DNA of 64,000 bases from an uncultured Gammaproteobacteria bacterium. GTDB lineage: Bacteria > Patescibacteriota > Patescibacteriia > Veblenbacterales > UBA10138. Every line of letters starts with the position of its first letter. The first letter of the stretch is position 1. This document shows, in pieces, positions 15,893 to 60,282 of this stretch. Location: contig CAZMHN010000001.1 in the NCBI GenBank assembly GCA_964566145.1, positions 16,945 to 80,944 of the forward strand, written 5' to 3'. The translations under genes and the position numbers were made by a program. Below the pieces are notes generated by a model. It worked only from the letters and a program-made list of their open reading frames with translations. It had not been told where the DNA came from and ran no database searches.

Positions 15893-15979
15893 GGGCGAGT
15901 GGCGGAATTGGTATACGCGTACGCTTCAGGAGCGTATGGCCGTAAGGTCGTGAGGGTTCAAGTCCCTCCTCGCCCACCA
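15893..15979 (+). tRNA. tRNA-Leu (anticodon CAG), type II with a long variable arm.
   Basis: Folded by hand. Acceptor GGGCGAG/CTCGCCC; 3-bp D-stem with 11-nt loop; anticodon loop TTCAGGA; 15-nt variable arm; T-loop TTCAAGT; discriminator A; CCA encoded. Confidence 0.9.
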
Positions 15980-26134: not shown

Positions 26135-26209
26135 GCCCTCGTAGTTCAATGGATAGAATGCGAGCTTGCGGAGCTTGTGATGCAGGTTCGATTCCTGCCG
26201 AGGGCACCA
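26135..26209 (+). tRNA. tRNA-Arg. Anticodon reads GCG; CCA is encoded.
   Basis: Folded by hand. 7-bp acceptor GCCCTCG/CGAGGGC; D-arm with A20; anticodon loop TTGCGGA; T-loop TTCGATT. Confidence 0.85.
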
Positions 26210-56788: not shown

Positions 56789-57421
56789 CTAGGAGCGTAG
56801 CATGCGCTCCAGCTTCCGGCGAGGAATCGCTCCGTCGCGCAACACCGTGAGCCGGGCGCGCTCCACCTTCACGACTGTGGATGTCGGCCGCCGCCTGAGC
56901 TTGCCGCCGTCCACCATGTAACTCAAGCCGCGCCGGACCAATGCCCGCGTGACTTGCGCCGCGGAATACGGCGTAGATTTCCCGGTGACGTTCGCGGACG
57001 TAGCTACGAGCGGCCCGCCGGCCCCCCGTGCCAATTTACGAAGCCAGACACTGCCAGGAATGCGGATGCCCACTGTGCCGTCAGCGGCGCGCACTGCCTT
57101 GAGCAGTTTGCCATTGGCTGTAAGTACGAGCGTTAACGGACCAGGCCAGAACCTCCTGGCCAGTCCGGCTTCGACCGTATTCATACGGCAGTATTTGCGC
57201 ACCATGTTCATGTCCGAAGCCACCAAAGGCATGGCTTTGGGGTCGCGCCGACCCTTTAGCCGCGCCACAGCCCGCACTGCGCTTGCATTCGCGGCATCGG
57301 CAAACAGGCCGTACGCCGTTTCGGACGGCCCTGCCACCACCTTGCCTGCTTTCAGCACGGCAACCACTGCGGCCAGGCTCCGATTCGTACGGGGATATAC
57401 GGTTATGGTACGGTTGCTCAC
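56789..57421 (-). CDS. tsaC: L-threonylcarbamoyladenylate synthase (YrdC/Sua5 domain).
   Basis: 210 aa. YrdC fold motifs (PSETAYGL, PGPLTLVL). Overlaps the leuS stop by 4 nt. Confidence 0.85.
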   Translation of the reverse strand: MSNRTITVYPRTNRSLAAVVAVLKAGKVVAGPSETAYGLFADAANASAVRAVARLKGRRDPKAMPLVASDMNMVRKYCRMNTVEAGLARRFWPGPLTLVLTANGKLLKAVRAADGTVGIRIPGSVWLRKLARGAGGPLVATSANVTGKSTPYSAAQVTRALVRRGLSYMVDGGKLRRRPTSTVVKVERARLTVLRDGAIPRRKLERMLRS

Positions 57422-60282
57422 GAAACCACGAAATTCACCAATCTTCCCGGAACATACACTGTCCGCACGGTCTGCTTGCCAGCTATGTGCCTGGTTACTC
57501 CTGCTTCCGCTCGCGCCGCTGTAACCACCTCGCTCTCGGAAGCGCCGGACGGTACCTGCACCGAACCCCTGACCTTGCCGTTCACCTGCACGGTCACGGT
57601 CACTGAATCCTCCTTGAGTGCGGCTTCGTCATAGTCTGGCCAACCTTGCTCCCACACCTGTCCGCCGAATTTCAATCGCCCCCACAGTTCGCTCGTAACG
57701 TGCGGCGCGAACGGATACAGAAGCAACAGCAGTTTGCGGTAGGCCTCCGCTTTCGCCTGCATCTTAACCTCGCGCATTTGCGAGAGCGCATTGGTGAGTT
57801 CCATCATGGAAGCTATTGACGTATTCAAATTCAATTGCTCAATGCCCTCCGTTACTTTCTTTGTTACGCGCGCCGTTTCGCGCGACAGGAACTTAGCCTG
57901 TTCCGGAGAGCCGGCTCCCCCGCCTTCCATAATGGTCTCTGACAAAAACCAGACCCTTTCCAAGAACCTGCGCACGCCGATGATGGAAGACGTGTTCCAC
58001 GGCTTGGCGTCTTCCAATGGCCCCATGAACATTTCGTACAGCCTTAGTGTGTCGGCGCCGTGCTCTTTCACGATTTCATCCGGGTTCACCACATTGCCGC
58101 GGGACTTGGACATCTTCTGCCCGTCCTCGCCCAGAATAAGCCCCTGGTTCCTGAGTTTCAGGAACGGCTCTCCGAACTCCACATACTTAGCGTCTTGCAA
58201 AAACTTGGTAAAGAACCTGGCATATAAAAGGTGTAACACCGCGTGCTCGGCCCCACCCACGTACAGGTTCACGGGACACCACGAGCTCACTTTTTTCTTA
58301 TCGAACGCTTCCTGCTCGTTCTTCGGGTCGCAGTACCTAAGGAAGTACCAGGAAGAATCCACGAACGTGTCCATGGTGTCGCTTTCCCGCCGCGCGGCCT
58401 TGCCGCACGTGGGGCACGTCACATTGTGGAAAATCTTTGAACGCTGAAGCGGTGATTCGCCCTGCGGCCTGAAATCCACGTCCTCGGGCAACGCCACGGG
58501 TAAATCTTTTTCCCGGACCGGCACTTCGCCGCACGTTTCACAGTAGATGATAGGTATGGGGGCTCCCCAGTACCTCTGGCGCGAAATTAGCCAATCACGC
58601 AGACGGTATTGGGTCTTAAGCTCAGCACCTATATATTTGGCGATGGCCGGAATGGCCGCGGCCGAATCCATGCCAGAGAACTTACCCGATTGCGCCAAAA
58701 TGCCCTCACCTGTATAAAAGGTTTCTCCGTTCTGCAACACTGACCACAAGTACCGATGCGGTTCCGGTAGCTTGAACCTATTCATCTCTTCTTGGGTAAG
58801 CCACACTACGTCATGCATCTCACCCTCGCCTTGCGCAAGGTCCTGGCGAGCGTCATTTTCAAGCTGAAAGAAAAAGTTATGGAAGTGCGCAAAGCGATTC
58901 TCATTCTTCGGCACATGAAAGAACCTGCTGTGTTCCATGCCGAATGTTTGCACCAGTTTGGGATTGAGGTATCCGGTCTCCTCTATTATCTCCGCCTTGG
59001 CCGCCTGCTCAGGTGTTTGGCCTGCTTCCACTCCGCCGGTTATAAACGTGTCCCAATCCACTTTCTTCCATTTGAGCCCTATGTACTTATCCTCTGACCA
59101 ATGTTTGACGATGGCGGTGATGGCCTGACGCTCAACGAAAGGCAAGCCCTGACGCACCGCGCCCGGTTCGGTCTTCTGGACAAAACAAGGCTCAATCACC
59201 TGGCGTATGGCCAATCCGAACTTTTTGGCGAACTCGAAATCCCTTTCGTCGTGCGCCGGCACGGCCATGATGGCGCCGGTGCCGTACGAAGTGAGAACGT
59301 AATCAGCGATGAACACCGGGACATGCTCATGGTTGGCTGGGTTCACGGCTTCTACCCCTTCGAGCCTGACGCCTGTCTTGCTCTTTTCCTCGACTTTGCG
59401 CTCGAGCTCGGTTTTCTTCTCCGATTGCTCCGCGTACGCCTGCACCTCCGGCCAGTTGGTTATTTTGTCCTTCAGCTTACGAACCAACTCGTGCTCCGGC
59501 GCCAGCACCATGTAGGTGGCGCCGAAAATAGTATCCAGGCGCGTGGTGAAGATACGCACCTTGTGCTCGCTACCCGCGATTGGGAAATCCACTTCGGCGC
59601 CCTCGCTCTTCCCGATCCAGTTCGCCTGCATGTCCATGATGGGCTTGGGCCAGTCCAGTCCCTTGAGCTCATCCAGCAAACGCTCGGCGTAGGCCGTGGT
59701 CTTGAAGAACCACTGTTTCATGTTCCGCTGTTCCACATTGCTGTGACAGCGCTCGCATTCCCCGTTCACCACCTGTTCGTTCGCCAGCACTGTCTGGCAC
59801 GAAGGACACCAATTGACCGGCGCTTCTTTGCGATAGGCCAAGCCCTTCTCATACAGTTTCAGGAAAAGCCATTGCGTCCAGCGGTAGTACGCCGGGTCAG
59901 CCGTATTCACCTCCCTGGACCAATCATAGGAAAACCCCAGCGATTGTATCTGCCTGCGGAAGTTGTCTATGTTCTCCCAGGTGACCTCCTTGGGGTGGCG
60001 TCCGGTCTTGATGGCATAGTTCTCGGCCGGGAGCCCGAACGCGTCCCACCCCATGGGGTGGAGCACGTTCACGCCCTTCATCCGGAGGTAGCGGCAGTAG
60101 ATGTCGGTCGCAGTGTAGCCTTCGGGGTGCCCCACGTGCAAACCCTGGGCCGAAGGGTACGGGAACATGTCGAGCACGTACGCCCGCTCACCTTTGGCCT
60201 TGTCGTCTGCCGCGAACGTGACGCTGTTACGCCAGTATTCCTGCCACTTCCACTCTAACTTTTTATGATCGTATGGTTCCAT
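57418..60282 (-). CDS. leuS: Leucyl-tRNA synthetase carrying an inserted Nudix-like domain within the CP1/editing region.
   Basis: HVGHPEGY (HIGH motif). TTRLDTIFGATY and VPAHDERDFEFA editing motifs. YRLRDWLISRQRYWG. KMSKS. 954 aa. Confidence 0.95.
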   Translation of the reverse strand: MEPYDHKKLEWKWQEYWRNSVTFAADDKAKGERAYVLDMFPYPSAQGLHVGHPEGYTATDIYCRYLRMKGVNVLHPMGWDAFGLPAENYAIKTGRHPKEVTWENIDNFRRQIQSLGFSYDWSREVNTADPAYYRWTQWLFLKLYEKGLAYRKEAPVNWCPSCQTVLANEQVVNGECERCHSNVEQRNMKQWFFKTTAYAERLLDELKGLDWPKPIMDMQANWIGKSEGAEVDFPIAGSEHKVRIFTTRLDTIFGATYMVLAPEHELVRKLKDKITNWPEVQAYAEQSEKKTELERKVEEKSKTGVRLEGVEAVNPANHEHVPVFIADYVLTSYGTGAIMAVPAHDERDFEFAKKFGLAIRQVIEPCFVQKTEPGAVRQGLPFVERQAITAIVKHWSEDKYIGLKWKKVDWDTFITGGVEAGQTPEQAAKAEIIEETGYLNPKLVQTFGMEHSRFFHVPKNENRFAHFHNFFFQLENDARQDLAQGEGEMHDVVWLTQEEMNRFKLPEPHRYLWSVLQNGETFYTGEGILAQSGKFSGMDSAAAIPAIAKYIGAELKTQYRLRDWLISRQRYWGAPIPIIYCETCGEVPVREKDLPVALPEDVDFRPQGESPLQRSKIFHNVTCPTCGKAARRESDTMDTFVDSSWYFLRYCDPKNEQEAFDKKKVSSWCPVNLYVGGAEHAVLHLLYARFFTKFLQDAKYVEFGEPFLKLRNQGLILGEDGQKMSKSRGNVVNPDEIVKEHGADTLRLYEMFMGPLEDAKPWNTSSIIGVRRFLERVWFLSETIMEGGGAGSPEQAKFLSRETARVTKKVTEGIEQLNLNTSIASMMELTNALSQMREVKMQAKAEAYRKLLLLLYPFAPHVTSELWGRLKFGGQVWEQGWPDYDEAALKEDSVTVTVQVNGKVRGSVQVPSGASESEVVTAARAEAGVTRHIAGKQTVRTVYVPGRLVNFVVS

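Follow-up and report, generated by a model that had tools for sequence, protein, structure and literature searches.

The window, that is, the whole stretch of 64,000 nucleotides that was analysed, carries on its minus strand a leuS gene, and a Nudix domain is nested in the leucyl-tRNA synthetase (LeuRS) that it encodes. The features of the gene are given below by their positions in the window. Tt denotes T. thermophilus LeuRS, and A2 denotes the alignment of 66 LeuRS sequences used for motif conservation.

57418-60282, minus strand: leuS, bacterial-type LeuRS of 954 aa with the nested Nudix domain, a single uninterrupted ORF
59188-60282, minus strand: LeuRS aa 1-365, containing the N-terminal half of the catalytic core, the ZN1 module and the greater part of CP1 (= Tt 1-364)
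60127-60138, minus strand: HIGH signature HVGH, aa 49-52 (H49, G51 and H52 invariant in A2)
59530-59547, minus strand: editing-site threonine-rich motif TTRLDT, aa 246-251 (T246, T247, R248, D250 and T251 invariant in A2)
59239-59265, minus strand: editing-site motif AVPAHDERD, aa 340-348, including Asp345 (V341, P342, H344, D345, R347 and D348 invariant in A2)
58726-59187, minus strand: nested Nudix domain of type I, aa 366-519, in place of the CP1 loop Tt 365-373
58969-59037, minus strand: Nudix box GGVEAGQTPEQAAKAEIIEETGY, aa 416-438 (from the translation and from conservation in type I and type II)
58894-58911, minus strand: hairpin-tip motif PKNENR, aa 458-463 (from the conservation table)
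58801-58827, minus strand: motif E486...H490...W494 (from the conservation table)
57421-58725, minus strand: LeuRS aa 520-954, end of CP1, YRLRDWLISRQRYWG, second half of the catalytic core, anticodon-binding and C-terminal domains (= Tt 374-582 and 637-876)
58102-58116, minus strand: KMSKS, aa 723-727 (invariant in A2)

The leuS reading frame is open throughout, without frameshift or internal stop. In the profile search, the protein matched TIGR00396 (leuS_bact) with 1050.8 bits (cut-off 548.4) in two stretches with the insert between them, and Pfam PF13603 matched aa 221-366 over model positions 2-143 with 208 bits. The full set of catalytic and editing motifs of LeuRS is present and is invariant across the 66 relatives in A2. 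The identity to canonical LeuRS is approximately 40% for Thermus (1H3N/2BYT/2BTE) and 35% for E. coli (4AQ7), and the TM scores to these structures are 0.83-0.87 (target-normalised). HIGH, KMSKS, ZN1 and the CP1 editing motifs, together with the anticodon-binding and C-terminal domains, are common to the window protein and canonical LeuRS, whereas the region of approximately Tt 583-636, taken as the leucine-specific domain, is without counterpart in the window LeuRS. The LeuRS fold was kept in the full-length AF2 model (pLDDT 89.6), with pLDDT of 88-93 at the Nudix/LeuRS junctions and of at least 50 in every linker. Aminoacylation and post-transfer editing would be expected to proceed as in ordinary LeuRS. 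The nearest named relatives of the window LeuRS were from Kerfeldbacteria, Adlerbacteria, Campbellbacteria and Paceibacterota. Promoter-like and terminator-like sites at leuS showed no excess over the shuffled expectation.

By alignment to T. thermophilus LeuRS (1H3N), residues 1-365 and 520-721 of the window protein correspond to Tt 1-364 and Tt 374-582, respectively. The canonical Thermus enzyme has a CP1 loop of nine residues (Tt 365-373) between these segments, whereas the window protein has 154 residues there, located between the editing motif AVPAHDERD and YRLRDW. This agrees with the initial annotation, which had placed a Nudix-like domain of about 150 extra residues between the same motifs (58720-59187). 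Pfam NUDIX (PF00293, gathering score 21.1) matched aa 409-511 of the full protein with 48.8 bits (E 9e-13) and, when residues 366-521 were searched alone as had been proposed, the score was 53.3 bits (E 3.7e-14). The structure prediction, proposed there as a further check, gave the alpha/beta/alpha sandwich with the loop-helix-loop Nudix box that characterizes the superfamily, with strands at 441-456 and 461-474. The 'beta-grasp' context of the same annotation has to be replaced by this sandwich. Since the HMM score, the predicted fold and the insertion-point alignment all agree, the structural reading is fully supported, and a real Nudix fold is almost certainly nested in a functional LeuRS. 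The attachment of the Nudix domain to LeuRS is physical.

The Nudix box string GGVEAGQTPEQAAKAEIIEETGY was found as annotated, with the span corrected from 58972-59037 to 58969-59037 (23 residues). It departs from the consensus Gx5Ex7REUxEExGU at positions 7 and 15, where Gln422 stands instead of the Gx5E glutamate and Ala430 instead of the arginine, respectively; the arginine replacement had been recognized before, but it is not the sole change. Replacement of these two canonical residues means that the activity could be altered or lost. The REUxEE metal-binding/catalytic glutamates (E431, E434 and E435) and G416, G417 and G437 are all present in the insert. Conservation was calculated for 145 domains in a joint alignment, 54 of them of type I and 91 of type II, the two sister subtypes of the clade (the window insert belongs to type I). 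E431, E435, G416 and G437 were 100% conserved in both types, G417 97-100% and E434 85-100%, and R385, K459, N462, L474 and W494 reached at least 92% in both. At the hairpin tip, K459 and N462 were conserved at 97% or more in both subtypes, and R463 at 98% in type I and 84% in type II. E486, H490 and W494 were 100% conserved in type I, and the corresponding values in type II were 78%, 79% and 98%, respectively. The clade signature R385 / K459..N462-R463 / E486...H490...W494 is complete in the window insert. The type I box reads GGxExGQ...(R/K)AE..EETGY; its Gln at position 7 is invariant in alignment A1 and position 15 varies within type I, while the type II box is fully canonical. Among type-I-bearing LeuRS, the mean identity to the window was 55.8% for the insert and 54.5% for the LeuRS body, and purifying selection on the insert is indicated by its being as conserved as the body.

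The Nudix clade is almost confined to genomes labelled Patescibacteria and is mostly found inside LeuRS. A Nudix domain occupies the same LeuRS loop in more than 100 protein clusters (50% identity) and in roughly 86% of the 120 LeuRS relatives with the highest scores, and approximately 105 domains were located at this site in representative proteins. At least 129 species-representative genomes encode type I, and almost all of them bear the label Patescibacteria. Of 80 genome loci from species representatives, 66 had their best type I copy in an open frame of at least 800 aa, flanked by LeuRS sequence. The entries for these LeuRS in the search database already list Pfam NUDIX hits. Type II often shares a protein with type I, so that both occur within single LeuRS proteins, with tandem type II-type I arrangements at the same loop in L016, L026, L028, L061 and L074. 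In close LeuRS relatives, the CP1 loop is either empty or occupied by a serine hydrolase or a different Nudix type, and a Ham1/ITPase-like, HAD or serine-hydrolase module was seen in further LeuRS of this group. The CP1 loop is a permissive hot-spot. The Ham1/ITPase-like, HAD and serine-hydrolase modules fit a nucleotide- or metabolite-cleaning theme; on the other hand, the presence of unrelated hydrolases in the same loop of close relatives suggests that the link to LeuRS may be no more than a carrier relationship.

GC3 was approximately 0.60-0.63 over the insert versus 0.73 over the remaining gene, and the insert and the LeuRS body were discordant. These observations are compatible with a recent horizontal acquisition of the insert, and differential loss from an ancestor with a tandem type II-type I arrangement at the same loop accounts for the pattern equally well. 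The repeat search around the insert gave no mobile-element signature: a single direct repeat pair of 13 nt, located within the insert, and inverted pairs of 14 nt with 86% complementarity were treated as chance, there being no convincing flanking repeats. No type I relative was found in IMG/VR viral contigs, and there was accordingly no sign of a phage-borne module.

For the comparison with characterized proteins, the insert was set against solved structures and curated family models. The identity to solved structures was 9-21%, and the best fold match was 2AZW, an E. faecalis MutT/Nudix protein without assigned function. Compared with free-standing Nudix proteins (2AZW, the T. thermophilus Ndx1 Ap6A hydrolase 1VC8, M. 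tuberculosis Rv2985 9CXX, NudI 6DT3 and MutT), to which it is 17-21% identical, the insert differs by the Gln/Ala box variant, by its own K..NR and E...H...W motifs and by being nested in another enzyme. Its scores were far below every cut-off of the substrate-specific family models searched (MutT, RppH, NudI, ADPRase and others), including those for the MutT 8-oxo-dGTP diphosphatase (NF008044, 20.0 versus 148 bits; TIGR00586, 16.4 versus 97.9) and RppH (NF001935, 21.0 versus 259 bits; related models, 14-18 versus 116-241). A precedent is NadM-Nudix (NMN adenylyltransferase plus ADP-ribose pyrophosphatase), in which an adenylyl-transfer enzyme is fused to a Nudix domain that removes a related nucleotide by-product. 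The corresponding model (NF003786) gave a weak match at the Nudix level (E 0.031), with 13.5 bits against a cut-off of 397, and NadM-Nudix is an end-to-end fusion with a different partner enzyme, whereas the window Nudix is a nested insertion. IleRS with an N-acetyltransferase domain (NF040702, ileS_w_GNAT) is a curated bacterial class Ia synthetase with an extra enzymatic domain, but both synthetase and module differ from the LeuRS and Nudix of the window, and the score of 71.5 bits against a cut-off of 1999 reflects shared class I synthetase homology only.

Taken as a whole, the protein is probably an otherwise complete LeuRS with a genuine, independently folding Nudix domain in a CP1 surface loop, acting as a Mg2+-dependent pyrophosphate hydrolase on a small nucleotide-type substrate; being so nested, the domain would make the protein bifunctional. 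The Nudix domain is likely to be catalytically active. E431, E434 and E435, together with the Gly416/417 loop, would bind Mg2+, and the domain would then cleave a pyrophosphate bond in the small nucleotide-type substrate, with R385, K459, N462, R463, E486 and H490 probably shaping the pocket for phosphate and base. With a pI of 5.4-6 and a net charge of -5 to -8, the domain is acidic in the manner of small-molecule Nudix enzymes. A free nucleotide polyphosphate of the ApnA or NTP class is favoured as substrate by a narrow balance. Our best guess is a small-molecule nucleotide pyrophosphohydrolase for dinucleoside polyphosphates or aberrant NTPs, the likeliest substrates being dinucleoside or nucleoside polyphosphates such as Ap4A (as a by-product of the synthetase) or non-canonical NTPs in a 'house-cleaning' role. 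ApnA in particular is a doubtful choice, and LeuRS is not known to rank with the strongest producers of Ap4A, which counts against the Ap4A-type reading.

The replaced box residues raise the question of whether hydrolysis was lost through the Glu-to-Gln and Arg-to-Ala changes, leaving a nucleotide-binding sensor or structural brace through which aminoacylation, editing or the movement of CP1 would be modulated. This is improbable given that conservation of the glycine loop and of the three metal-binding glutamates is 85-100% over the 145 domains of both types, and that the box is fully canonical in the sister type II, which often occurs in the same protein; moreover, the Gx5E glutamate adds little to catalysis according to the MutT mutagenesis literature. 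A different substrate, the tRNA bound by LeuRS, would be suggested by the nesting of the domain in CP1, the binder of the CCA end, by the RppH structures among the fold matches of the insert and by the occurrence of type I almost exclusively in or beside LeuRS. The domain would then remove a 5'-triphosphate or nucleotide cap in the manner of RppH/NudC, or a toxin-installed 3'-pyrophosphate on the CCA end. Its negative charge, the free-standing copies far from leuS and the low RppH model scores given above (14-21 bits against cut-offs of 116-259) make such a tRNA-end enzyme unlikely. With similarly low probability, two CP1-associated loops of Patescibacteria LeuRS form a docking platform for interchangeable hydrolases (two Nudix subtypes, Ham1-like, serine hydrolase and HAD) that act on LeuRS-bound tRNA or LeuRS-directed toxins. 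Such hydrolases might clear the acceptor end of tRNA(Leu) of a pyrophosphate or cap installed by a toxin, or destroy adenylate-mimic antibiotics.

That these modules confer immunity by destroying leucyl-adenylate-mimicking or other LeuRS-targeting nucleotide antibiotics would be in line with the several unrelated small-molecule hydrolases in the same LeuRS loops, with the GNAT-containing IleRS in NCBIfam as a precedent of a class I synthetase with an embedded enzyme, and with the life of Patescibacteria as epibionts in competitive settings. It is nevertheless a remote prospect: the known LeuRS-directed adenylate mimics, such as the toxic moiety of agrocin 84, are phosphoramidates and not pyrophosphates, no genomic association with toxin or immunity genes was seen, and PADLOC gave no meaningful defence-system match. 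Hydrolysis of misactivated aminoacyl-adenylates, the second suggestion of the initial annotation, has the location within the editing domain as the sole point in its favour and is very unlikely, because Nudix enzymes cleave the pyrophosphate bond of NDP-X and aa-AMP has none; the normal editing motifs are also all kept, and free-standing copies exist. Finally, the GC3 dip over the insert could point to a chimeric assembly or a mis-called gene. Against this stand the continuous open frame, the recurrence of the architecture across the independent protein clusters counted above and at the majority of the 80 genome loci, and a 954-aa protein (P0190) that is identical to the window LeuRS and whose source is given as NCBI in the search database. 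Recurrence in independent assemblies refutes an artefact, and its probability is negligible.

Aminoacyl-tRNA synthetases are among the most conserved enzymes, and to our knowledge catalytic domains nested in the proofreading domain of a bacterial synthetase are essentially undescribed. The rarity implied in the initial annotation is wrong, the LeuRS-Nudix architecture being widespread in LeuRS of Patescibacteria; the full-text literature search nevertheless found no description of it. The nested domain is common across the sampled genomes of this group, exists as two conserved paralogous subtypes and alternates with other hydrolases. Were it to act on tRNA ends or on synthetase by-products such as Ap4A, nucleotide surveillance would be coupled to translation in a new way, which would be notable in organisms whose genomes are very small and which have to scavenge nucleotides. 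If the docking-platform reading were true, the insert would serve a previously unknown synthetase-embedded repair or immunity function rather than being a passive fusion with a housekeeping enzyme. Even as a mere passenger, it shows that the CP1 loop tolerates whole-enzyme insertions, which is useful in protein engineering and helps to understand how functions are packaged in reduced genomes.

Type I also occurs in Patescibacteria as free-standing proteins of approximately 160 aa (P0001-P0037), encoded by separate genes, whereas type I of the window is nested in LeuRS. They are 47-62% identical to the insert over alignment A1 (by BLASTP, P0001 had the top figure of 65%). The box variant is common to them and the insert, as are 26 invariant positions with the N-terminal EPxF strand among them. 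A lead to a NADAR fusion came from P0039, in which a weak NADAR tail follows a truncated Nudix; it was seen on one Logan contig only and was judged an artefact or pseudogene. In L002/L013 and L015, the free-standing type I gene is the immediate upstream neighbour of a leuS with type II. Other free-standing type I genes lie away from leuS and adjoin a HAD or serine-hydrolase gene. The HAD gene beside the free-standing Nudix in L085 had no detectable similarity to the HAD module in the LeuRS P0212, and the serine hydrolase near L087 was homologous to the insert of P0194, with just 28% identity.

An uninterrupted open reading frame of 954 aa (57418-60282, minus strand) scored 1050.8 bits with the bacterial LeuRS model TIGR00396 (leuS_bact; cut-off 548.4) and 208 bits with the LeuRS editing domain model PF13603 of Pfam, both matches being split into two stretches. 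The product is a bacterial-type leucyl-tRNA synthetase. The following motifs, all encoded on the minus strand, were located in it and were invariant in the alignment of 66 LeuRS relatives:

aa 49-52, class I signature HVGH
aa 246-251, editing-site motif TTRLDT
Asp at aa 345, editing-site motif AVPAHD345
aa 723-727, class I signature KMSKS

In the alignment to the T. thermophilus LeuRS (1H3N, hereafter Tt), residues 1-365 corresponded to Tt 1-364 and residues 520-721 to Tt 374-582, and therefore the nine-residue loop Tt 365-373 was replaced by 154 residues. This loop is inside the CP1 domain (PF13603 model positions about 143-147), and the insertion point proposed in the initial annotation was thereby verified; the inserted segment does not correspond to the ordinary C-terminal portion of CP1. 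Roughly Tt 583-636, which we interpret as the leucine-specific domain in the Thermus enzyme, was found to have no equivalent, since the alignment passed from Tt 582 to Tt 637 over two residues (aa 721-723; 58102-58125 region). The full-length model (pLDDT 89.6, pTM 0.78) was superimposed on the E. coli and Thermus LeuRS with target-normalised TM-scores of 0.83-0.87.

The Nudix box was confirmed in the translation as follows:

58969-59037, minus strand, Nudix box GGVEAGQTPEQAAKAEIIEETGY

The string was thus as first read, and its true span is three bases longer than initially annotated. NUDIX (PF00293, gathering score 21.1) was matched by Pfam at aa 409-511 of the full protein with 48.8 bits (E 9e-13), and by aa 366-521 alone with 53.3 bits. 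Because these scores exceed the gathering score and the box string was found, the Nudix segment in LeuRS is confirmed, far above chance. The AlphaFold2 model of aa 359-521, built with 37 homologues, had the expected strand-helix-strand order (pLDDT 94.6, pTM 0.88). In the full-length model both junctions with LeuRS were confident (pLDDT 88-93), no disordered linker was seen at either of them, and the strand 'VIEPCF' passed directly from CP1 into the Nudix sheet. None of the substrate-specific NCBIfam models came near its cut-off with this domain (MutT, 20 bits against 148; RppH, 21 against 259).

For the distribution of the arrangement, an exhaustive HMMER search over 1.84 billion cluster representatives was done with the junction-spanning aa 340-560, and 533 proteins were returned at E ≤ 1e-3, with a bias toward LeuRS-embedded copies from the LeuRS flanks in the query. 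Among the best 150 of these, 147 were newly returned, and LeuRS sequence was detected by BLAST in 124 of the 147, a further 6 being LeuRS fragments by Pfam. Nudix domains were placed relative to LeuRS landmarks: about 105 lay between AVPAHD and YRLRDW (site B, that of the window enzyme), 13 to 16 just before CP1 (site A) and 54 within free-standing proteins, and two or three were present in some single LeuRS. A protein identical to the window LeuRS (P0190, source NCBI) was in the search database. The source-given names were all of Patescibacteria/CPR, including Saccharimonadales, Paceibacterota, Moranbacteria, Campbellbacteria, Adlerbacteria (a UniRef entry) and Kerfeldbacteria.

The domains were divided into two subtypes. 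Type I, to which the window insert belongs, has the box GGxExGQTxExAA(R/K)AEIxEETGY, with Gln at box position 7 (invariant in the alignment of 38 type I sequences and present in most genome copies) and a variable residue instead of the canonical Arg at position 15 (Ala430 in the window); type II, the majority of site-B inserts, has a fully canonical box. Across 145 analysed domains, the metal-binding positions E431, E435, G416 and G437 were conserved at 100%, G417 at 97-100% and E434 at 85-100%. R385, K459, N462, L474 and W494 were each at least 92% conserved in both types; for R463, E486 and H490 the conservation was 98-100% among type I domains and 78-84% among those of type II. Since residues outside the box are common to both, the two types are, as judged from sequence, sister lineages of one clade. 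They occurred together within single proteins, either with types I and II at sites A and B, respectively, or as a II-I tandem at site B, and within single loci (L002/L013 and L015), where leuS bearing type II comes after a free type I gene; this co-occurrence suggests that they are not redundant.

The same picture as in the representative search was obtained by a genome scan with a Nudix-only alignment, covering one genome per GTDB species. Type I Nudix was encoded by at least 129 genomes, nearly all labelled Patescibacteria, the copies in the few labelled otherwise lying on short contigs. In 66 of the 80 loci kept, an open frame of 800 aa or longer with flanking LeuRS sequence contained the best type I copy, and in 7 this copy was in a shorter or cut frame, also LeuRS-flanked; the other 7 copies were free-standing (2 directly upstream of leuS, 1 at 2.4 kb from it and 4 with no leuS within 5 kb). 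Nudix-bearing LeuRS thus recurs in related genomes. Two free-standing type I proteins of 157 aa (P0016 and P0017) bear the name 'leuS' in NCBI records, presumably by transfer from Nudix-bearing LeuRS, which is an annotation trap. In one protein of the representative search (P0179, 251 aa), a domain of the same Nudix clade was accompanied by a weak HGTP_anticodon hit that scored 18.9 bits, under the cut-off of 21; P0179 may be part of a fusion between a class II synthetase and Nudix.

An ordinary bacterial LeuRS is host here to a divergent Nudix-superfamily domain; unusual are the nesting of one enzyme in the CP1 domain of another and the clade-wide conservation of that layout. Precedents of a different kind are NadM-Nudix fusions, which are end-to-end rather than nested, IleRS with a GNAT domain (NCBIfam-curated) and eukaryotic synthetases with accessory domains. 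No description of the LeuRS-Nudix architecture was found in a full-text search of about 8 million papers and preprints, a collection of incomplete coverage. The combination is already visible in the automatic Pfam annotation of public proteins, a PF00293 match being recorded for about 103 of the 120 best-scoring relatives of the window LeuRS; the window leuS is one member of a large, apparently unstudied family.

The nearest relatives, ranked by LeuRS-body identity to the window enzyme, differed in the contents of site B:

P0194, 84% identity in the N-terminal part, PF06821 serine hydrolase (aa 372-546)
P0196 and P0198, body identity 72-73%, nothing
P0191, body identity 70%, type II Nudix whose identity to the window insert was only 37-38%
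P0192, body identity 69%, type I Nudix, 56% identical to the window insert

The best N-terminal LeuRS similarity was thus to the serine-hydrolase version. The insert had its best matches elsewhere: identity reached 65% with free-standing proteins and 67% with the inserts of LeuRS labelled Saccharimonadales or Saccharibacteria, and the bodies of those LeuRS were only about 45-55% identical to the window LeuRS body. Type I inserts were conserved relative to the window to the same degree as the LeuRS bodies around them (mean identity 55.8% versus 54.5%), and in a neighbour-joining tree the embedded type I copies had free-standing ones nested among them at several points. These comparisons would fit a permissive loop with repeated swapping or re-insertion, and also differential loss from an ancestor having a tandem II-I insert. 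GC3 over the insert (58720-59187) was about 0.60-0.63; the remainder of leuS had 0.73, and the 5' end of the gene about 0.80. The dip is compatible with later acquisition and not decisive. A 14-nt inverted repeat (86% complementary; 58687-58700 and 59223-59236) brackets the insert; being short and imperfect, it is probably due to chance.

An intact LeuRS bears a well-folded Nudix domain with strongly conserved metal-binding residues. We infer that the domain would be an active Mg2+-dependent pyrophosphohydrolase on a small nucleotide-type substrate, working beside aminoacylation and editing and not in their place. As putative substrates we favour nucleoside or dinucleoside polyphosphates, for example Ap4A-type by-products of the synthetase, or aberrant NTPs, because the domain surface is acidic (pI of the domains 5.4-6), the basic residues R385, K459 and R463 are conserved, ApnA hydrolases are among the top fold neighbours, and Ham1 and HAD modules keep company with it. 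The hydrolysis of misactivated aminoacyl-adenylates, which was also suggested initially, is unlikely on chemical grounds, since Nudix enzymes cleave pyrophosphate bonds. Alternatively, the domain may be a non-catalytic sensor, may act on tRNA ends, or may detoxify LeuRS-directed antibiotics.

Other enzyme modules were found in LeuRS of Patescibacteria and near free-standing type I genes. A Ham1/ITPase-like module was at site A of the relative P0272 (aa 252-394), and a HAD_2 module at a third site of P0212 (aa 997-1151). Next to free-standing type I Nudix genes, a HAD_2 gene ended 4 nt upstream in one locus (L085:4400-5486) and a PF06821 serine-hydrolase gene lay about 1 kb away in another (L087:3321-5489), and both neighbours belong to families that also occur as inserted modules in other LeuRS. 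Identity between the serine hydrolase of L087 and the P0194 insert was 28%, and no similarity was detectable between the HAD of L085 and the HAD module of P0212. In some relatives (P0044 and P0065), an extra insertion of about 100-130 aa follows YRLRDW...RYWGEPIP and lies between the CxxC zinc-knuckle region and 'LP..LP'; in P0065 it had no Pfam match. In the window, leuS is followed by a Sua5/YciO/YrdC (TsaC-like) ORF (56789-57421, minus strand), the earliest potential start of which overlaps with the stop codon of leuS. A Sua5-family gene also adjoins a free-standing type I Nudix (L001:5310-6474), and this is a hint that synteny was conserved after fission or fusion. The window that encodes this LeuRS also carries genes for tRNA-Leu(CAG) at 15893-15979 and tRNA-Arg(GCG) at 26135-26209.
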